A stretch of 64,000 nucleotides of DNA, taken from assembly GCA_030647005.1 (NCBI GenBank), contig JAUSKG010000034.1:4050-68049 (forward strand), read 5' to 3'. Of this stretch, positions 2,565 to 60,784 are shown one piece after another. Positions within the stretch are counted from its first letter, which is position 1. Every line of letters begins with the position of its first letter. This stretch comes from a bacterium (lineage in GTDB: Bacteria > Patescibacteriota > Patescibacteriia > JACPHY01). The notes under the pieces are model-generated. The model saw only the letters and a program-made list of their open reading frames with translations. It searched no databases and was not told the DNA's origin. The translations under genes and the position numbers were made by a program.

Positions 2565-4095
2565 ATGCCTTGCGCTTCGCGAGGAGTGCGTGGCGATGCT
2601 TGCCGACGAACTCGCTCGCTTCTTCGCTGTTCCAGGGGTGCTGCGCCTGTCCGACCGCCGCGAGCATACTCATCGTGAGGTGCTCGAGGAGTGCGGCTTT
2701 TCCCGTGGGCAAGATACCGTAGCACGTGTTGAGAAGGATGAGGTGATCCTCGCTATTGCCGATCACCGCGAAGACGTGCGGTGCTGCGCGCGTGGAGCCA
2801 AAGAACCACGTCTGGTCGCCGACGTTCAGGGGAATGATGCGGCTGCCTTGCTTACGGTCACGACTGCCACCTCCACCACTTCCGCCGCCTCCACTTCCAC
2901 CGCCTCCACTTCCGCCATCACCACTTCCACCGCCACCACTTCCGCCATTACCACCCAAACCCTCGGGATTGCGGATAGGTGGCGAGGCGGTTGCCTTCCC
3001 CCATGCATGCTCGAACGCGGCGCGGATGTCGTGCGTGATGACCTCCGCCACCTTCGATCCGGCCATGATATCGGCGTCCTCGAGGAGTGCCTGCGCCTGC
3101 GGGGCAACCTCGGCCTGGAGGAGGTCTGCGATCTTCCTCCATGCCTTCCCCCTGAGGAACATATCGTGCAGCCCGCTGCGCGACGTGTCCTGCTGTTCCA
3201 GGAGTCCCGGGACGAAGATGTCGCCTCGGAGATCCGGACGGCCGAGCGGGTATGGCAGGTGCCGACCGAGTGCCGGACAGAATCCCACACGGAACCCCGT
3301 CTCTGCATCCACGAGCCAGATGCCGCTCCGCTCGCTCGCGGGGTCCGGAACGCGCTCGAGGTAGGCCTCGATGGCGGTATCCGGCACGGCGATCACGAGT
3401 GCGGACACGAGCGGTGGCGGGACGAACTTCTTCCCGCCGATGAGGAGCGTGCCGCAGCGATCACGCTTGCGTGGAAGCCAGGGTGCAACCGCATCTCGGA
3501 GCTCGTTGTGCGACCCGAAGACCGGGTTGTCCACGACGATGCAGGAGAATCGCCCGCGATGGCCCGCGTACGCACCGAGCTCCAACGCGTCGGGCTCGAA
3601 TGATTGCGGGAGCGCACCCGGCGGTGTCGTTGCCGCCGTTGGCGTGATGCGCCAGCACGTCACACGACCGGACACCGACGTGCGCGTGAAGACGGTGAAC
3701 CCCGTGTCGTAGCTATACCGATCGCGGCGCAGCGCGAACGCTGCGGTACGACCGATCCCCTTGTCCGATGCGCCACGGTATCTCCCGCGCTTTCCTTCCC
3801 GACGCTTCGCCCCGAGCGAGCAGAACCGATCGAAATCGGCCTGCGTGAAGCCGGTGCCGGAGTCAAAGCAGACGAGCGCGGACTCTCCCGTGAACGCGTG
3901 CCGCTTCTCGATGCTGAGCTCAACGTGGATCCGTGATGGCTCCCAGAGCTCCTGGGTCCCGCCGCCCATGCACGCCACCATCGCATTCCGAATGATCTCC
4001 ACGACGCACTTGCCCGGATCGGTGTACAGCTCTGCGCCGAGCGGTCCAACGAGCAGCTCGGCGGTTGCTTGAAAGAGAACCGGTGATACCTTCAT
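2563..4095 (-). CDS. GHKL-superfamily (HATPase_c / Bergerat-fold) ATPase with Gly/Ser-rich linker and C-terminal domain
   Basis: 510 aa with an SD GGTGAGGAG upstream. N-terminal Bergerat motifs are present: N-box EIIRNAMVAC, G1 FDSGTGF, G2 GASDKGIGRTAAFAL. A (GGSGG)n low-complexity linker sits near residue 385-415, followed by a ~90-aa C-terminal domain. Confidence 0.7.
   Translation of the reverse strand: MKVSPVLFQATAELLVGPLGAELYTDPGKCVVEIIRNAMVACMGGGTQELWEPSRIHVELSIEKRHAFTGESALVCFDSGTGFTQADFDRFCSLGAKRREGKRGRYRGASDKGIGRTAAFALRRDRYSYDTGFTVFTRTSVSGRVTCWRITPTAATTPPGALPQSFEPDALELGAYAGHRGRFSCIVVDNPVFGSHNELRDAVAPWLPRKRDRCGTLLIGGKKFVPPPLVSALVIAVPDTAIEAYLERVPDPASERSGIWLVDAETGFRVGFCPALGRHLPYPLGRPDLRGDIFVPGLLEQQDTSRSGLHDMFLRGKAWRKIADLLQAEVAPQAQALLEDADIMAGSKVAEVITHDIRAAFEHAWGKATASPPIRNPEGLGGNGGSGGGGSGDGGSGGGGSGGGGSGGGGSRDRKQGSRIIPLNVGDQTWFFGSTRAAPHVFAVIGNSEDHLILLNTCYGILPTGKAALLEHLTMSMLAAVGQAQHPWNSEEASEFVGKHRHALLAKRKA
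2866..2955 (-). repeat. 15-bp tandem repeat (about 6 units) encoding the (GGSGG)n linker of the GHKL ATPase
   Basis: Units CCACTTCC(G/A)CC(G/A)(C/T)C(T/A) are repeated head-to-tail on the plus strand. They translate on the minus strand as GGNGGSGGGGSGDGGSGGGGSGGGGSGGGGS. Confidence 0.8.
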
Positions 4096-6187: not shown

Positions 6188-6547
6188 TTATCCTCCCTTC
6201 TTCTCCGTCTTGCAGCGCACGCAGGAGCTGGAGGTTGGACGCGCGATCAGTCGCTTCTCTGGAATCTGCTCGTTGCAGTATCGGCACATCCCGTACGTGC
6301 CCGCGGCGATGCGCGAGAGCGCATTGTTCACATCGCGGAGCGCGTGGTCCAGTGCCTGCCCGAGGGACAGGTTGTCCGAGTACGTCGCAATTTCTGCGGC
6401 GTTCTCATCCTCACCGCGACCAAAGTCCTCAAACTTCCCGTAGCGTTTGAGCTCGAGTTCGAGTTCTTGCTTCCGCGTAAGCAATCTTTCCTCAATCGTC
6501 TTCAGGAGCCCCGTATCCATAGCAGTTGCTGTTGCGTGCATATCCAT
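6188..6547 (-). CDS. DksA/TraR-family C4-type zinc-finger protein
   Basis: N-terminal coiled-coil region (LLKTIEERLLTRKQELELELKRYGK) followed by CRYCNEQIP...CVRC (CxxC-x17-CxxC). Start assigned at MDMHATA. Confidence 0.7.
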   Translation of the reverse strand: MDMHATATAMDTGLLKTIEERLLTRKQELELELKRYGKFEDFGRGEDENAAEIATYSDNLSLGQALDHALRDVNNALSRIAAGTYGMCRYCNEQIPEKRLIARPTSSSCVRCKTEKKGG

Positions 6548-7131
6548 CCTTGGTGCTCCCGCACCAGCTTCGGAGGGAACATGCGAAACCACCCATCCCC
6601 ATCCCACCCCCTCAAAATGACGTGGAGGACCCACTCACAACAAGTGCTGTGAGATTTCTAGCATAGCGACTCGCAGAGGGACCGTCCAGTACGGAAAAAT
6701 GGCGCAAAAAGAAAGAGGCGCTTGGATGTGCGCCGCCGTTTTGATAGCGGTAATGATTTCAGCACAATCCTGCGCCTCTTGACGATCATTGGCCTTGGCT
6801 GTGTCCGCGGATCGCTGGCTCGGATGAACCCAGCCGAGGCACCGATCCGCGGAAACGAGCACGTACCAATATCGTTCTTGCACTTTGCTGAGAAGTGCGC
6901 CGCTCAACCATTCGCTGGGTGGCCACAAGTTGAAACGAGGGACTACACCCGTTGTGCTTTTGGTTTACCAACACTTGGCCCTATTCAGCATTCGGGCCGG
7001 TATGAGGAACAGTAGAGCGGAAGGAACTCCCGATGAGCGAGCACCGAACATGACATACCGACTGAAGCAATTCGCCTCACTCGGACTCTCCCAGGGAGAT
7101 CCCTACATGTGTTTCCCCTTCGTACTTATCC

Positions 7132-26477: not shown

Positions 26478-26499
26478 GGGAGGGGGTAAACCCCTCCCC
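26478..26499. repeat. GC hairpin repeat GGGAGGGGGTAAACCCCTCCCC (copy; others at 40624..40650 and 60682..60708)
   Basis: Perfect 9-bp stem with TAAA loop, directly abutting MITE copy C. Confidence 0.5.
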
Positions 26500-26508
26500 T
26501 ACGGTGCT

Positions 26509-27945: not shown

Positions 27946-28338
27946 CTATCCACTCGTTGCTGTTCTCACGCGACTCAAAACGAACGCTGAGATTGCAAAA
28001 GCGGCGAGCGTGACTACCAACCCAATGAGTGCGCGACTGAAGGTCTCCTTCGCCTTGGTCACTTTGGTCTCTTCGCTCCCTGCGGTCATCCAGAGGAATC
28101 CGCCATACACCACGAGTCCAAAGAAGATAATACTAACGAGCTGGAGCAACCCGTTGACGATCCGTGTGACAAGGATGATAGGCGAGGAGGGATCGGTAAT
28201 GTATCCGGCACCAAGACCGATCTGCTGACGCTGTTCCTTGATATCGTCTTTAAGGGATGCCACCGCGATAGAGGGAAGAACCGCAAACACCGCGCACCAC
28301 ACGAAGATGTTCGCGCAGACCGTCCGTATCATCCGCAT
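27946..28338 (-). CDS. TrbC/VirB2-like (T4SS-type) pilin-family small membrane protein, paralog 1 of 7
   Basis: Signal peptide, then a TM helix with the conserved motif VVYGGFLWMTAGSEETKVTKAKE, then a second TM helix. Confidence 0.65.
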   Translation of the reverse strand: MRMIRTVCANIFVWCAVFAVLPSIAVASLKDDIKEQRQQIGLGAGYITDPSSPIILVTRIVNGLLQLVSIIFFGLVVYGGFLWMTAGSEETKVTKAKETFSRALIGLVVTLAAFAISAFVLSRVRTATSG

Positions 28339-28390
28339 TCCCAGATGTGTGTGCTGTGGTGCGTGCATACGTCAGGAGGTTGCTGCAGCA

Positions 28391-28777
28391 CTACACCACG
28401 CCAGACGCAGCGACAAGACGGTCAATGATGAAGAAGGAGAGCGACCATGCGGCGAGTACGATTGCCAAACCAATAATGGAGCGGCGAATCGTCTCCTTTG
28501 CCTTCTCAACCTGCGGTGCCTCTCCGCGCGCGGTCATCCAGAGGAAACCCGCGTAGACCATTTGCACGAAAAAAATGACACCAAGCAATGAGATGGCGGC
28601 CATGACGATCTGGCCAATGAATACCGCCAGGGAAAACTTGTCCGTGATCACGCCTCCCCACCCAGCTTCCGCTCCTACGTCTTGCAGGCGTTCCAGTATC
28701 GAACCAGCATACACACGCACGGGCACCATACCGAACATCACCAGTGCAAGCAGAAAGTGCCGTAGGTGTTTCCGCAT
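28391..28777 (-). CDS. TrbC/VirB2-like pilin-family small membrane protein, paralog 2
   Basis: Motif MVYAGFLWMTARGEAPQVEKAKE. Start at the internal MRKHLRHF. Confidence 0.65.
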   Translation of the reverse strand: MRKHLRHFLLALVMFGMVPVRVYAGSILERLQDVGAEAGWGGVITDKFSLAVFIGQIVMAAISLLGVIFFVQMVYAGFLWMTARGEAPQVEKAKETIRRSIIGLAIVLAAWSLSFFIIDRLVAASGVV

Positions 28778-28778
28778 A

Positions 28779-29165
28779 CTACGAGATCCCCGAAGCGGCC
28801 TCAATGGCCTGCACGACAAAGTACGCAATCGCATACGCGCCGAGTGTGATTGCAAGTCCGATAATGGCGCTGGTGATGGTCTGCTTCGCCTTCTCGATCT
28901 GCGGGGAATCCCCGCGTGCGGTCATCCAGAGAAATCCGCCGTAGATCATGAGCACAAAGAATATCACGCCTACGAGCGAAAGGCCGGTGAGGATGATATC
29001 CGCGATAACAAAATCAATGTCTGTCTGAGCTCTCCGTGTAACATCGAGTTCTAAAAACTTCTTGAGTGCCTCATCAAACACACCCGCCGCTCGCGCGACG
29101 ACTGGCTGCACGATGAGTACCGCCCCCGTGACGATCCCGATGCCGTAGCGCGTTATGGTGCGCAT
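28779..29165 (-). CDS. TrbC/VirB2-like pilin-family small membrane protein, paralog 3
   Basis: Motif MIYGGFLWMTARGDSPQIEKAKQ. Confidence 0.65.
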   Translation of the reverse strand: MRTITRYGIGIVTGAVLIVQPVVARAAGVFDEALKKFLELDVTRRAQTDIDFVIADIILTGLSLVGVIFFVLMIYGGFLWMTARGDSPQIEKAKQTITSAIIGLAITLGAYAIAYFVVQAIEAASGIS

Positions 29166-29169
29166 ACGC

Positions 29170-29625
29170 TCACGCAAAAATGCTCAGTACGAACGCCGTT
29201 GCGGCGAAGGCGAGGCCGATGATGATGATGCCGATGATGGCGGCCTTAATGATGTCCTGGGCCTTCTTCACCTGGTCGGGCGCGCCCTGGGCGGTCATCC
29301 AGCGGATACCGGCGTAGATCATGAGGATGAGGAACGCGACGCCGACGAGCGAGAGTACGTTGTAGATGACAGCACCAACGATGACCTCGAGCGGACGCGC
29401 TTCACCGAGCACCGCCTTTGCTGCGCTATCCTTAAGCCCACACTCCGCGAGACAACGCGCGGAAAGCGTTGCGCGAGCTGCTTCTCCCGCTGCGCCTAGC
29501 TCCGGACAGGTGCACGGTGCTACAGATACAGAAGCTTGAGCGGAGACAGCAGGCGGCAAGAACACCGTCGCGCCAAGCGTGGCGAGGAGTACTGCGGTGG
29601 CGATGGCGGTTGCGCGAACACGCAT
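29170..29625 (-). CDS. TrbC/VirB2-like pilin-family small membrane protein, paralog 4 (Cys-containing N-region)
   Basis: Motif MIYAGIRWMTAQGAPDQVKKAQD. Cys-containing segment CTCPELG...CLAECG. Confidence 0.6.
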   Translation of the reverse strand: MRVRATAIATAVLLATLGATVFLPPAVSAQASVSVAPCTCPELGAAGEAARATLSARCLAECGLKDSAAKAVLGEARPLEVIVGAVIYNVLSLVGVAFLILMIYAGIRWMTAQGAPDQVKKAQDIIKAAIIGIIIIGLAFAATAFVLSIFA

Positions 29626-29650
29626 AGCGGGAACGTTTTTGGAGAGCGAG

Positions 29651-29682
29651 GAACGCGCCCCGATCTTGATCGGGGCGCGTTC
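29651..29682. terminator. perfect palindromic hairpin between pilin paralogs 4 and 5
   Basis: GAACGCGCCCCGATC / GATCGGGGCGCGTTC. There is no clear T-run, so it may be a terminator or a processing site. Confidence 0.3.
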
Positions 29683-29708
29683 CGATCGCGCGATACGAAA
29701 CGGTGATC

Positions 29709-30131
29709 TTAGGTCGTCGCAGTGACGAGGGAGTTGATGACGAACTTGGCGATGGCGAATGCGGAGAGGATGATCGCAAGGCCGATGATGCCGGAGAAGA
29801 TGAGCTGCTTCGCCTTGGTCACCTTGGTCTCTTCACCGCCTGCGGTCATCCAGAGGAATCCGCCCGCGAGGATGATGACAACTGCAACGATGCCCAGGAG
29901 TCCCATGGCGACGTTGATGATCGAGGCAACCGTCGAACGGACATCGCGCGTGCCGAGCTGGATCGTGTTCCCGACCTCATTGATGCCAATGTCAAGTGTG
30001 CCGACGGCACCGACTGCATGCGGCAACATGAGTGCCGTTGCAGCTCCGGCGGCGACCGCAGTGGCGGCAACCTTCCGGAGAGTACTCCGATTGCGCAGTG
30101 ATGCGATGTGCATAGAAGCGATACGTGGCAC
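29709..30131 (-). CDS. TrbC/VirB2-like pilin-family small membrane protein, paralog 5
   Basis: Motif IILAGGFLWMTAGGEETKVTKAKQ. Confidence 0.65.
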   Translation of the reverse strand: MPRIASMHIASLRNRSTLRKVAATAVAAGAATALMLPHAVGAVGTLDIGINEVGNTIQLGTRDVRSTVASIINVAMGLLGIVAVVIILAGGFLWMTAGGEETKVTKAKQLIFSGIIGLAIILSAFAIAKFVINSLVTATT

Positions 30132-30215
30132 TGAGCCGATTCGGGCGAGCTCCTGGAGATCGCGGGACGACGACGCGTGCCTGTTAACAATGCGTGGTTA
30201 TGATGGAACCAATAC

Positions 30216-30584
30216 TCACGAAGCAGACCCCAGTCGCGAGATGATGAAGGTGGTGACGGCGTATGCGGTGAACATGACCGCAATCCCGAGCACCGCCCAC
30301 ACCATGACATCCCTCCCTTTCTTCACTCTTTCAGGACTCCCGGCAGAGGTCAACCACAGGAACCCGCCGTAGATGAACATGAGGAGCGCGATGGAGCCCA
30401 CGAGCCCAAATCCCGCACGAATGACGTTCCCGATGAGCACCGCGATGGACGACGTACCGATCGGGTTCTCGAGGGACGTTGTACTCGCGGTTGTGCCCGC
30501 TGCATGAGCCGCAACAGGAACGAGTGCCGCCACCGCCATCATCCACAGCACTTTCGCACGCATCCACAGAATCATATGCAGCAC
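30216..30584 (-). CDS. TrbC/VirB2-like pilin-family small membrane protein, paralog 6
   Basis: Motif FIYGGFLWLTSAGSPERVKKGRD. Confidence 0.65.
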   Translation of the reverse strand: MLHMILWMRAKVLWMMAVAALVPVAAHAAGTTASTTSLENPIGTSSIAVLIGNVIRAGFGLVGSIALLMFIYGGFLWLTSAGSPERVKKGRDVMVWAVLGIAVMFTAYAVTTFIISRLGSAS

Positions 30585-30639
30585 ATTCTTAGTATACCAT
30601 GAACTCTACGTGGCTGTGTACAAGTGTCACAATGGGGGC

Positions 30640-30734
30640 GTAGCGGAAACCTTTAGGTTTCCATCCGCCTACCCGCGACCAATCCGCCTACAACGAACGG
30701 CCGGATGGAGGCCTGAAGGCCTCCGCTACACCAT
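30640..30734. repeat. structured ~95-nt repeat, copy 1 (two internal hairpins closed by an outer GTAGCGG/CCGCTAC stem); second copy at 55689..55764
   Basis: GTAGCGGAAACC-TTTA-GGTTTCC ... GGAGGCC-TGAA-GGCCTCC-GCTACACCA. The second copy carries the compensatory change GGAGGTC/GACCTCC. Confidence 0.5.
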
Positions 30735-30757
30735 ACAGCTCGCACCTGGTATCGGTA

Positions 30758-30804
30758 TGACCGGGATTGCCGCGTCGCTCGCGGACTCGCTCCTCGCAAT
30801 GACA
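30758..30804. repeat. solo right arm of the MITE-like element (copy D)
   Basis: ATGACCGGGATTGCCGCGTCGCTCGCGGACTCGCTCCTCGCAATGAC. Confidence 0.7.
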
Positions 30805-30821
30805 GGGGGGGGGTGATCAAC

Positions 30822-31391
30822 TCACTCCGTCTTTGGCAGCGTGGACCACTCTACTGCCCAGTCACCAGTGAAGAGCTTCGCGGGCGTGGTTGCTCCAAGC
30901 TGGCCGGTGAGCGCGCCGAGGATGGTGTTCACGAGGAGCCACGCGCCAAAGATGATGACGATGCCGATCGTCGCGTGGACGAGCGTCTCGCGCCCCTTCT
31001 TTACCTGCTCCGCGCTGCCGGCTGAGGTCACCCAGAGAAACCCGCCGATCGTGAACATGAGGAGCGCGAGCGATCCGGAGATGCCGAAGATAAACTTGGA
31101 AACCTGCACGACGATGACCACGAAGTCCGCGAGCACGCAGTTCCCGTAGCAGAAGCAGTTCGCGCTCGTGAAGAGTATCGGTCGCGGATTCTCCTCGGTG
31201 GGCGCATCGAACCGCGCGCGGCACTGCCCCGTCGGCTCGCTCGCGTTCACCCACTCGCCCTCCGTATTCTGCACCGCGACGGTCGCGCGCTTCCGATCCG
31301 TATCCACGCCCTGCGCCCACACCGCGAGCGGCGCGACGACGAGCGTCGCGAGCGAAGCAATCACCGCAAGCGTCAGCAGGCGTCGCAGCAT
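30822..31391 (-). CDS. TrbC/VirB2-like pilin-family membrane protein, paralog 7 (extended Cys-rich N-region)
   Basis: Motif MFTIGGFLWVTSAGSAEQVKKGRE, preceded by an ~80-aa region with CRARFDAPTEENPRPILFTSANCFCYGNC. Start MLRRLLTLAV. Confidence 0.6.
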   Translation of the reverse strand: MLRRLLTLAVIASLATLVVAPLAVWAQGVDTDRKRATVAVQNTEGEWVNASEPTGQCRARFDAPTEENPRPILFTSANCFCYGNCVLADFVVIVVQVSKFIFGISGSLALLMFTIGGFLWVTSAGSAEQVKKGRETLVHATIGIVIIFGAWLLVNTILGALTGQLGATTPAKLFTGDWAVEWSTLPKTE

Positions 31392-31405
31392 ATGAGATTT
31401 CTCCA

Positions 31406-31428
31406 CTCGCGGACTCGGTCGAAATGAC
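31406..31428. repeat. solo terminus of the TCATTTCGAG-subfamily palindromic element
   Basis: CTCGCGGACTCGGTCGAAATGAC. Confidence 0.45.
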
Positions 31429-31441
31429 GTTCTAGGCATCA

Positions 31442-32911
31442 TCACAGCGTCTGCTGAATCTTCTGCGCGGCGAGCTGGAGCGCGCGGTTGATTTCAATGG
31501 TATCCGAATACGCATCGCGGACGAGCTGCACGAACGCCTGCTCCGCACCCTCCGCGTTCTTTCCATGGTACCACGTCCGCGCGGTGAGGAGCTGGTTTGC
31601 GAACACCTTGAGGTCAACGTCCTGCTGCTGCTCGCCCACGAGCGATCGCAGTGCGGTGGGACGCTTGGCCTGCTCGAGGAACCGACGCGTCACCTGCGGC
31701 TGCGTCGTGATGTAGGTGAGGAAGTCCCACGTCTCGTTCGGGGCACTCGTGCGCTCGGAGACCGCCTGGAGCCAGAAATCCGCGTAGGTAATTGCCGCAC
31801 CCTGTCCACCCGGCACGACATCACTCCCGATAACGCTCCCGGTCTGCGGGTCTACGGCGGCGGCAATGTGTGGCACCGCACTCACCGAGAGATTCAACTG
31901 CGGTGCGCGGCTGCGGATGATCGGACGGTGGTAGCTGTAGCCAAAGAAGTACGCCACCTTCCCCTGGAGGAACGCCTCAAGCGCGTCGGGCTGGTCATCG
32001 TTCCACGAGTAGACGAGCTTGTTCGGGTTGGCGAAATCCGCGTAGTACGCGAGCGCGTCTGCCGCCGGCAGCGACGTGCGTCCCGTGATGCCCGCCGGTA
32101 GGAGGTGGAACGACGGCACGCCGCGCGCGATCATCTGCGTCCCGTTCTGCATCATGAGGAGCGAGAGGATATCGAACGACCGCGGGACGTTCCCCATCGT
32201 CCCGAGCGCGACGCCGGACTGGAGGATCGCGCCATCCGCAGCGACGCGCGTGAGACGCGGCACCTGCTGCTGGAGTTCTGCCCAGGTCTTTGCAGGCACC
32301 GGAATACCCCCCGCGTTCAAGAGGTCACGGTTCGCGTAGAGCACGAGCGTATCCACGTAGAGTGGCAGACCGTAGACGGCATCTCCCCCCTCGCGCGGGA
32401 GCACGACATCCGACACGACGACGTCCAGGAAGAGGTCGCGGAGCGTCTGCGGGTTGGGCGTGGTTGTCGCGCGGAGCTCGCCCACCTGCTCCTTGCGCAC
32501 TGTACCCGTGAGCGTGACAAACGGCATGGTGACGACGGACGGCGCGGGGAGGAGCTTCGACTGGTACCGCCGCGTCCACGTCGCGGGAATCGAGATGATG
32601 TCCGGTCCGGCGAAGTCGCCCTCGGAAAGCGCGTCGAGGAGTGCGGTCTCATACTCATCGAGCCGGAGCTTCCGGTAGGTGATCTGCACATGCGGGTGAA
32701 TCTGCCGGTACGCGTCAATGAGCGGGCGCACGTCATCGCTCGTCTCATTGACCCCCCACCAGACAAGATTGACCGGCCGAAGCCGCGCTGCGACCTCCTG
32801 CGGAATCGCGTCCCGCACGCACCCGGCGCCAAGGAACACTACGGACACGGCGATGAGCGCAATCGCACGGAGCCGTGACCAGCTGCCTCTTTGTTCTTGT
32901 CTGTGTTGCAT
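31442..32911 (-). CDS. extracellular solute-binding protein (ABC-transporter SBP family-1-like), probable lipoprotein
   Basis: Start MQHRQEQRGSWSRLRAIALIAVSVVFLGAGC (lipobox). ~490 aa with periplasmic-binding-protein-like composition. The track ORF extends 16 codons into the upstream repeat. Confidence 0.55.
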   Translation of the reverse strand: MQHRQEQRGSWSRLRAIALIAVSVVFLGAGCVRDAIPQEVAARLRPVNLVWWGVNETSDDVRPLIDAYRQIHPHVQITYRKLRLDEYETALLDALSEGDFAGPDIISIPATWTRRYQSKLLPAPSVVTMPFVTLTGTVRKEQVGELRATTTPNPQTLRDLFLDVVVSDVVLPREGGDAVYGLPLYVDTLVLYANRDLLNAGGIPVPAKTWAELQQQVPRLTRVAADGAILQSGVALGTMGNVPRSFDILSLLMMQNGTQMIARGVPSFHLLPAGITGRTSLPAADALAYYADFANPNKLVYSWNDDQPDALEAFLQGKVAYFFGYSYHRPIIRSRAPQLNLSVSAVPHIAAAVDPQTGSVIGSDVVPGGQGAAITYADFWLQAVSERTSAPNETWDFLTYITTQPQVTRRFLEQAKRPTALRSLVGEQQQDVDLKVFANQLLTARTWYHGKNAEGAEQAFVQLVRDAYSDTIEINRALQLAAQKIQQTL

Positions 32912-34947: not shown

Positions 34948-34957
34948 AACGATCTTC

Positions 34958-34983
34958 GGCGCTCCCGCGCCAGCTTCGGAGGG
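34958..34983 (+). repeat. 26-nt dispersed repeat GGYGCTCCCGCRCCAGCTTCGGAGGG (copy)
   Basis: Immediately 3' of the 34027..34947 stop. Other copies at 6552..6577, 36188..36211 (reverse) and 40661..40682 (reverse). Confidence 0.5.
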
Positions 34984-35045
34984 ACAAACCAGAAACACAG
35001 AGAAACGACCCCGCGAGAGCGGGGTCGTCTGTTGGATGTGCCATC

Positions 35046-40545: not shown

Positions 40546-40682
40546 GCGGGCGGGTATAAAACCCGCCCCTACGCCGTTACTTCGGAGGGGAGGAGTTCAT
40601 TCCATCGTCGCGTTATGCGTCTCCGTAGGGGAGGGGTTTACCCCCTCCCATCCGGGCTCCCCCTGAAGCTGGCGCGGGAGCG
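40546..40682 (-). repeat. composite repeat: GCGGGTATAAAACCCGC hairpin + GGGAGGGGGTAAACCCCTCCC hairpin + 26-nt repeat, reverse orientation; overlaps the 3' end of the giant ORF
   Basis: The same ordered pair of hairpins recurs at 60682..60784. The 26-nt element lies at 40661..40682. Confidence 0.5.
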
Positions 40683-55563: not shown

Positions 55564-55688
55564 ATCCTTGGCGCTATCGCGCCAGCTTCGGTCACAGGAC
55601 AAGCATAGCGTAGCGCATTGCGTCGCGGGAATCAACTCATGGAGAGACCGTTGAAAAAGTCCGAACATGCACCATCTGCCTGTCCGAT

Positions 55689-55764
55689 GTAGCGGAAACC
55701 TTTAGGTTTCCACGTACAGCGCGAGACGGATGGAGGTCTGAAGACCTCCGCTACACCATTTTTT
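55689..55764. repeat. structured repeat copy 2 (shorter variant, ends in T-run)
   Basis: GTAGCGGAAACC-TTTA-GGTTTCC...GGAGGTC-TGAA-GACCTCC-GCTACACCATTTTTT. Confidence 0.5.
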
Positions 55765-60681: not shown

Positions 60682-60784
60682 GGGAGGGGGTAAACCCCTC
60701 CCCTACGGGGTACGCGCAACGCAAGGAGGATGAGATGCCCAATCGCCACGGGAATCGCGTAGGGGCGGGTTTTATACCCGCCCG
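60682..60784 (+). repeat. composite hairpin repeat copy (GGGAGGGGGTAAACCCCTCCCCTACGG ... GCGTAGGGGCGGGTTTTATACCCGCCCG)
   Basis: Same two hairpins in the same order as the reverse-oriented copy at 40546..40650. Confidence 0.5.

Follow-up and report, generated by a model that had tools for sequence, protein, structure and literature searches.

In the window, the 64,000-nt stretch of Patescibacteriota DNA that was analysed as a whole, a short and strongly structured repeat occurs in two intergenic copies, which differ from each other by a base pair that is altered on both sides. This raises the question whether the repeat is a structured RNA or a mobile DNA palindrome, and the sequence-only reading had named both, a small RNA or a REP-like element. 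The REP-like part of that proposal was borne out, while the small-RNA part did not hold, since neither copy has a match in Rfam, the spacer is variable and the tails are not conserved. We consider it highly probable (roughly 0.85) that each copy is a REPIN, a head-to-head heterodimer of 23-nt GTAG-tagged REPs in inverted orientation around a variable spacer, which is a kind of element that is already well known (PMC3733652; PMC3116915; PMC8266576). The two copies are built as follows:

30640-30729, plus strand: copy 1 as a whole, intergenic, with a 44-nt spacer and ACCAT directly 3'.
30640..30662, plus strand: left REP unit of copy 1, GTAGC GGAAACC ttta GGTTTCC, with GTAG head, 7-bp stem and TTTA loop.
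30663..30706, plus strand: spacer of copy 1, 44 nt, containing ATCCGCCTAC twice; its ends form an ATCCG/CGGAT pair that lengthens the long hairpin.
30707..30729, minus strand: right REP unit of copy 1, in minus-strand reading GTAGC GGAGGCC ttca GGCCTCC.
55689-55754, plus strand: copy 2 as a whole, intergenic, with a 20-nt spacer and ACCAT directly 3'.
55689..55711, plus strand: left REP unit of copy 2, GTAGC GGAAACC ttta GGTTTCC.
55712..55731, plus strand: spacer of copy 2, 20 nt.
55732..55754, minus strand: right REP unit of copy 2, in minus-strand reading GTAGC GGAGGTC ttca GACCTCC, the variant with the compensated pair.

The window holds only these four units in two doublets, and all four span 23 nt, composed of GTAGC and a hairpin in which a perfect 7-bp stem encloses the 4 nt of a TTYA loop. 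In both copies the units form an inverted pair with the GTAG heads outermost. The two structured copies reported by the sequence-only reading are thus present, with their ends refined to the positions given above. Copy 1 and copy 2 show no difference over the 5' 24 nt (GTAGCGGAAACCTTTAGGTTTCCA), and over the 3' 31 nt (GGATGGAGG[C/T]CTGAAG[G/A]CCTCCGCTACACCA) the sole differences are at the two bases of one stem pair. Allowing up to 3 mismatches, a search of the window gave no further occurrence of either half, and there were 0 in 100 shuffles. An insertion in the linker of copy 1 had been described as 25 nt long; it is present, but comprises 24 nt (44 vs 20 nt of spacer). The spacer of copy 1 begins with the 10-nt direct repeat ATCCGCCTAC, which recurs with a 19-nt period (30663-30672 and 30682-30691).

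Compared to shuffled sequence, RNA folding yielded z = -8.2 for copy 1 and -4.1 for copy 2 and DNA folding z = -4.4 and -3.1, respectively, and with both parameter sets the two hairpins and an outer GTAGC/GCTAC stem were predicted. All parts of the architecture proposed before, an outer stem around two hairpins, were recovered for RNA and DNA alike, but its GG/CC bases are common to the outer stem and the hairpins, so that the fold is either 5 + 7 + 7 bp or, for copy 1, one long hairpin. What had appeared as an outer stem of seven pairs consists of the two GTAGC heads lying opposite each other. For copy 1, a single long hairpin is predicted (-49.9 kcal/mol as RNA, -21.3 as DNA), and for copy 2 a clover with two small hairpins; clover and hairpin are also the folds that are discussed for REPINs (PMC3116915).

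According to the text of PMC3733652, a GTAG-tagged REP consists of an unpaired GTAG beside a short stem-loop, with a unit size of 20–40 bp and a stem of 6–13 bp, and such REPs favour spacers between genes in the same direction or convergent genes, mostly downstream of genes. The same text describes head-to-head (HH) and tail-to-tail (TT) dimers as well as REPtrons, which are RAYT genes flanked by REPs. The window units have the head and the stem-loop of such REPs, lie outside genes and show complementary changes in their stems, and each copy consists of two inverted REPs with a short spacer between them, copy 1 folding as one hairpin as expected of a REPIN. Both copies are located downstream of minus-strand genes: copy 1 has two T4SS_pilin genes as neighbours, and copy 2 a Wzy_C gene and tRNA-Ser(CGA); every one of these genes is on the minus strand. 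The intergenic siting stated by the sequence-only reading was confirmed for both copies, including the neighbourhood of copy 2 to tRNA-Ser and of copy 1 to another repeat (30757-30805). Copy 1 sits between two members of an array of small paralogous minus-strand genes in tandem (27980-31445; repeat families D1, D3 and D11), at least two of which match T4SS_pilin (PF18895).

The REP family extends far beyond the window. A search with the left unit (GTAGCGGAAACCNNNNGGTTTCC, loop left free, one genome per species) found it in at least 120 loci from about ten phyla; the matches listed comprise 120 loci with 131 matches. Hosts among the matches listed are Ignavibacteria, Zixibacteria, Scalindua and other Planctomycetota, Dadabacteria and WWE3 (CPR), and furthermore Thermodesulfobacteriota, Margulisiibacteriota, Stahlbacteria, Vulcanimicrobiota and Thermotogae. 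Often there are several loci per genome, with at least seven each in single MAGs of Scalinduaceae, Zixibacteria and WWE3. A recognisable right-hand partner unit (pattern GGARGNC-TRAA-GNCYTCC-GCTAC) accompanies about half of the 131 listed matches, the rest being lone units or doublets broken up by nested palindromic repeats. In the strict doublets among the matches listed (n = 32), the spacer ranges from 5 to 67 nt with a median of 13.5, and unit spacing among the listed matches exceeds 200 nt where other repeats intervene. The left unit had 0 matches in 2.9 million viral contigs, and a phage origin was rejected on this basis; the 31-nt right half had 0 matches in a lineage-specific metagenome scan.

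Several further features were observed around the family members. The loop of the right unit is a recurrent site of nested palindromic insertions, for example ...GGCTACCCGCCCGTACCGAACGGG...GGGAAGCC... and ...GTCTCAAGACCTTG..., both in Scalindua and related Planctomycetota (L009, L035, L045, L071, L079, L087) and in Ignavibacteria and Zixibacteria (L001, L026, L044, L060, L097, L106, L107), indicating that hairpin loops attract further small elements. In a WWE3 locus (L091, 701-900), a ~29-nt piece of left unit and spacer (TTTAGGTTTCCATTTCCCCGGATCATGGC) stands in tandem about three times within one doublet, which is an example of local REP amplification. Near the REPs of seven loci (L018, 6610-7075, and six others) there is a small gene for a ~155-aa protein, which by eye looks like a member of the four-helix-bundle family of 23S rRNA intervening sequences, and in three loci (L059, 1496-1883, and two others) a protein of ~100 aa was assigned by eye as GIY-YIG-like.

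In other genomes, the REP family is tightly linked to RAYT genes. Clustering of all reading frames of the 120 listed loci brought out a recurrent protein of ~150 aa, whose gene is directly flanked by these units on both sides in six places and is cut by the locus end in a seventh; the loci concerned are L018, L027, L058, L062, L069 and, with flanking units at one end, L119. Two full-length genes were scanned and matched Pfam Y1_Tnp (E = 1e-10 to 1e-13) as well as NCBIfam NF047646, the REP-associated tyrosine transposase (110 bits vs a cut-off of 80). The protein carries an HxH motif and a tyrosine within a YxxxNP motif, and its best relative in the PDB is 4ER8, the TnpA-REP of E. coli. In a converse test, the protein served as starting point, and GTAG-stem-TTYA(Y)-stem units were sought around the gene in 80 metagenomic RAYT relatives. 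A unit was present at no more than 350 nt from the gene in 69 of the 80. Units stood on either side of the gene in 49 of 71 relatives, and in 43 of 71 a plus-strand unit upstream was combined with a minus-strand unit downstream, so that the gene is wrapped with the heads facing outward. The density of units was 4.58 per kb by the RAYT gene vs 0.11 per kb at more than 1 kb distance. Stems vary by lineage (GGAAACC, GGAGGCC, GGCGACC, GCAGGGC, GCAAGGC and others), and GTAG and the loop are fixed. Exactly the right unit of copy 1 (GTAGCGGAGGCCTTCAGGCCTCC) is found beside RAYT in the high-GC metagenome loci L126, L127, L145 and L176, and the GGAGGTC variant of the right unit of copy 2, which is common in Scalindua and other genomes, flanks the RAYT gene in L123. 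The 64-kb window itself yielded no RAYT when a profile from five RAYT-like ORFs of the loci was run against all reading frames of at least 40 aa (best hmmsearch E-value 0.34).

The C-G to T-A double change between the two window copies is real, and it turned out to be typical of the family, in which all seven stem pairs covary. Units were gathered from the RAYT loci blind to pairing, by the pattern GTAGN-N7-TTYA-N7. Seven of seven Watson-Crick pairs were formed in 161 of 218 units and six of seven in another 28, while a control with a GATG tag reached six or more pairs in just 2 of 21; a control with a TYTA loop was left out as it overlaps the real TTTA loop. Among 116 distinct units, 89.2% of the cells were paired compared to 58.1% in shuffles. 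Changes on both sides occurred at all seven pairs (247 cells in the 116 distinct units), and the covariation score was 0.765, compared to 0.219 in shuffles. None of 500 shuffles reached the observed values, and slid controls paired at 28–46%. At the pair that had first been noticed, the family has CG 50 times, GC 35, UA 9, AU 4, UG 3 and other combinations 15 times. Since both stem variants of the window, GGAGGCC and GGAGGTC, occur as subfamilies elsewhere, each window copy probably has a master copy of its own, rather than the two being related by a double mutation in place.

The surroundings of copy 2 allow a comparison between relatives. Four of them share the gene order Polysacc_synt, Wzy_C, tRNA-Ser(CGA) with the window, and their spacer from Wzy_C to tRNA-Ser measures 14, 22, 37 and 290 nt, in all cases without a REP, vs 208 nt holding copy 2 in the window. 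The element is absent from the orthologous spacers of the relatives; at the 57–69% protein identity of the relatives compared, this absence is visible and the insertion junction is not readable. The short REP-less spacers suggest that copy 2 is an addition in the source lineage and no conserved RNA gene of the locus. The nearest named relatives of the window Wzy_C protein belong to Candidatus Uhrbacteria (58% identity), which, taken with the pilin family, makes a CPR bacterium the probable source. In the Uhrbacteria relative with the 290-nt spacer (L204, ~3360-3600), the spacer houses a small reading frame that is GIY-YIG-like by eye, and the region between Wzy_C and tRNA-Ser may be a hot spot for small selfish insertions. 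Copy 2 is in addition enclosed by a second palindrome:

55644-58 and 55760-74, no strand assigned: arms GAGACCGTTGAAAAA and TTTTTCAACGGTCTC of a 15-bp inverted repeat enclosing copy 2, unique and overlapping the Wzy_C stop codon.

This inverted repeat was detected in none of the 204 fetched loci, nor in the short spacers of the relatives. The T6 run that follows copy 2 (55759-64) is an arm of this repeat and separate from copy 2.

A mechanism for the origin of the window copies can be carried over, by analogy, from the enzymes of E. coli, Stenotrophomonas and Marinomonas. REPINs are non-autonomous elements that RAYT (TnpA-REP), an HUH/Y1 enzyme, presumably spreads and maintains; we infer that a RAYT mobilised the two window copies as well. 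REP hairpins were described to be kept as substrates on which RAYTs act in single-stranded DNA, and frequent compensatory changes were reported for REPINs (PMC3116915; PMC8266576). TnpA-REP cleaves the single-stranded REP and needs the GTAG, the loop and a perfect stem for this (PMC8266576). The combination of a constant head, a constant loop and a stem that is free in sequence but perfect in pairing matches, by comparison with these enzymes, the biochemistry of TnpA-REP on single-stranded DNA. If the RAYT of this family likewise binds a folded single-stranded DNA hairpin and depends on its GTAG head, on its loop and on an unbroken stem, selection that keeps the stem foldable but leaves its sequence free would lead to differences such as the compensatory C-G to T-A exchange. 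The exchange had been put forward as a signature of selection on RNA structure; it fits selection on a single-stranded DNA hairpin and does not point to RNA in particular. Should transcripts of the adjoining minus-strand genes include the copies at their 3' ends, these may fold as RNA too, which would be a secondary effect.

Some E. coli REPs stabilise mRNA or slow or stop transcription, and the window copies might act in cis in the same manner, as hairpins in the 3' UTRs of the minus-strand T4SS_pilin and Wzy_C genes. We regard this as rather unlikely to be their explanation, although such a role is compatible with a REPIN origin and would then be secondary and co-opted. It would agree with the position of both copies just 3' of minus-strand genes, with the strong RNA fold predicted for either strand and with the siting of the family, in which, among the 25 doublets that have a called ORF on either side, 23 lie between genes of the same direction or convergent genes and 2 between divergent genes; the text of PMC3733652 also argues that many REPs are transcribed. 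However, a scan for terminator-like sites (GC-rich hairpin, T-run within 0–2 nt, strand of the upstream gene) found none in the region of either copy on either strand, the orientation of doublets relative to transcription shows no significant bias (10 vs 4), and the spacers of 14–37 nt in the relatives do without the element. Among single mismatches in the stems, G-T is the commonest (18, vs 12 A-C and 15 other), as would suit an RNA, but this asymmetry is too weak to decide an RNA strand. An independent small RNA gene, acting in trans or resembling a tRNA, was suggested by GTAGCGG/CCGCTAC followed by ACCA in both copies, which recalls an acceptor stem with discriminator base and CCA end, by the T6 after copy 2 and by the strong folding z-scores. 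This is very improbable and was largely refuted. ARAGORN and Rfam were blank at both copies with E-values up to 10, so that the Rfam scan that had been proposed as a check gave no family match: in Rfam 15 only tRNAs pass in the window, local hits at this level are chance-like matches of miRNA type (10–18 bits vs cut-offs of 42–100), and ARAGORN and RF00005 return just the three real tRNAs of the window. The base after CTAC is usually A in the family, yet ACCA and T-run tails are not conserved across the matches listed. The spacer varies from 5 to 67 nt and beyond 200 nt with intervening repeats, more repeats are nested in the loop of the right unit, and a transposase gene is found between such units. 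On the plus strand there is no promoter ahead of either copy, and the genes neighbouring both copies are on the opposite strand. The T6, which the sequence-only reading had likened to that of a terminator, could not be upheld as such: it starts 5 nt past the outer stem and 9 nt past the second hairpin, belongs to the other palindrome and is not on the strand of the flanking genes but on the opposite one. Two related candidates were rejected as well, a tRNA-like minihelix (7-bp stem plus ACCA) on account of the blank ARAGORN and Rfam scans and the lack of conservation of ACCA, and a type II hammerhead ribozyme, suggested by CTGAAGA and GAAAC motifs, whose stem II register misfits by eye and for which Rfam finds no ribozyme.

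We likewise give very little credence to a MITE derived from a DDE-type insertion sequence, in which GTAGCGGA... would be the terminal inverted repeat and movement would be by cut and paste with a target-site duplication. The ends are indeed inverted repeats, and the orthologous spacers of the relatives lack the element. Immediately outside the element, the 32 strict doublets mostly have T on the 5' side (23/32) and A on the 3' side (23/32), possibly a sign of a TA target, but the T...A flank amounts to a palindrome that is longer by one pair, and neither window copy has a direct target duplication (ggggc/accat and ccgat/accat). The supposed terminal repeats each form a perfect hairpin of their own, with GTAG at the head and a conserved loop, and thus bear the signature of a REP; among the genes between the units only that of the Y1/HUH RAYT recurs, not one for a DDE transposase.

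The REPINs are not the only repeats in the window. A second family of GTAG REPs forms tail-to-tail heterodimers ~52 nt apart, plus one lone unit, and units much like it (GTAG GGGCGGG tttac/tttat CCCGCCC) flank a RAYT relative in L191:

Second GTAG REP family, form a: GTAG-GGGAGGGG-tttac-CCCCTCCC.
Second GTAG REP family, form b: GTAG-GGGCGGGT-tttat-ACCCGCCC.
Second GTAG REP family, sites: 26478-26502 (minus strand), 40548-40572 (minus), 40625-40649 (plus), 60682-60706 (minus) and 60759-60783 (plus).
Third repeat family, sites: 19840, 25721, 26510, 26624, 30802, 32922, 39820, 39928, 39953, 40068 and 63519.

The third family has at least 11 copies of the form CTGTCATTGCGAGGAG(YGAG)TCCGCGA..GACGYGGCAATCCCGGTCAT, often as inverted pairs around a spacer of the GGTGAAAGCCGGGTGCAC type, and looks like another palindromic MITE- or REPIN-like element; the repeat at 30757-30805 that adjoins copy 1 is one of its copies. 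A 33-nt motif (ATCYTYGGYGCTNYCGCRCCAGCTTCGG...) without Rfam match occurs three times (6546-6578, 34952-34984 and 55564-55596), one copy abutting the 5' end of tRNA-Ser and another following a stop codon and preceding a GC-rich hairpin. Between 41113 and 47014, sequences recur every ~730–750 nt (families D2, D4 and D9: GTTGTTCNNCTC...CTCCGCGAT...), suggesting either paralogous genes or repeated domains in tandem array. At 2858-2946, 5–6 CCACCACTTCCGCCG-like units follow one another with a period of 15 nt and probably represent a low-complexity coding repeat.

The REPINs of the window and their relatives resemble the GTAG-tagged REPs described in the text of PMC3733652 in the unpaired GTAG, the short perfect stem-loop (here 7 bp) and the extragenic position mostly downstream of genes. 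They also share with them the inverted heterodimers with GTAG outside, subfamilies that arise by complementary stem changes, the presence of several REP families per genome and the occurrence of REPtrons. In contrast to the REPs in that text, the hosts here are uncultured lineages outside that paper, including CPR, and the 23-mer spans about ten phyla, which is broader than most families there. With the REPINs of Pseudomonas fluorescens SBW25 and E. coli, they have in common the inverted REPs with a spacer, the long hairpin or clover, the compensatory changes, a spacer less conserved than the REPs and the association with RAYT, here at the level of the family (PMC3116915). They differ from these in a far more variable spacer, ranging here from 5–67 nt to above 200 nt with intervening repeats, and in their low copy number in the window. 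The REP of the Group 3 TnpA-REP of Stenotrophomonas maltophilia is likewise a perfect palindrome of 23 nt with a GTAG head, albeit with an 8-bp stem and a 3-nt loop, compared to the 7-bp stem and 4-nt loop found here (PMC8266576). That enzyme needs GTAG, a specific loop base and an unbroken stem, matching the constant GTAG and TTYA and the covarying stems of this family (PMC8266576).

Although the kind of element is known, the GTAGC-GGARNNC-TTYA family and its hosts were not found in the searchable literature. The family is absent from the text of PMC3733652, whose consensus sequences stand in figure 1 and supplementary files, and the 12-mer GTAGCGGAAACC appears in no relevant paper of the searchable literature. 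REPs or RAYTs of Scalindua, Zixibacteria, Ignavibacteria, Dadabacteria and CPR were not described in the literature searched.

The finding means that what looked like a covarying structured RNA in the window is a transposase-linked DNA palindrome and should be dropped from the small-RNA candidates, as should the other GTAG-headed hairpins of the genome. It also means that one RAYT clade with a simple and recognisable REP grammar is widespread in uncultured phyla, namely Scalindua, Zixibacteria, Ignavibacteria, Dadabacteria and CPR. It is mildly surprising that the 23-mer, with the loop left free in the search, is common to about ten phyla when the transposases flanked by it are only 44–48% identical. 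REPIN-RAYT systems have been described as lineage-specific and vertically inherited (PMC3116915), whereas the REP sequence found here is common to several phyla, and REP sequences that are identical between phyla offer a concrete test of vertical-only inheritance of these systems. As a speculation that we consider doubtful, a single RAYT-REP lineage with a fixed code (GTAG, free 7-bp stem, TTYA) might keep identical 23-nt REPs in about ten phyla, including the reduced CPR genomes (WWE3 and the Uhrbacteria-like source MAG), while its transposases have diverged to ~45% identity. If this were true, either REPtrons would move between phyla, contrary to the view of strict vertical inheritance of REPIN-RAYT systems, or CPR episymbionts would have 'orphan' REPINs that came from other organisms or were mobilised by them.
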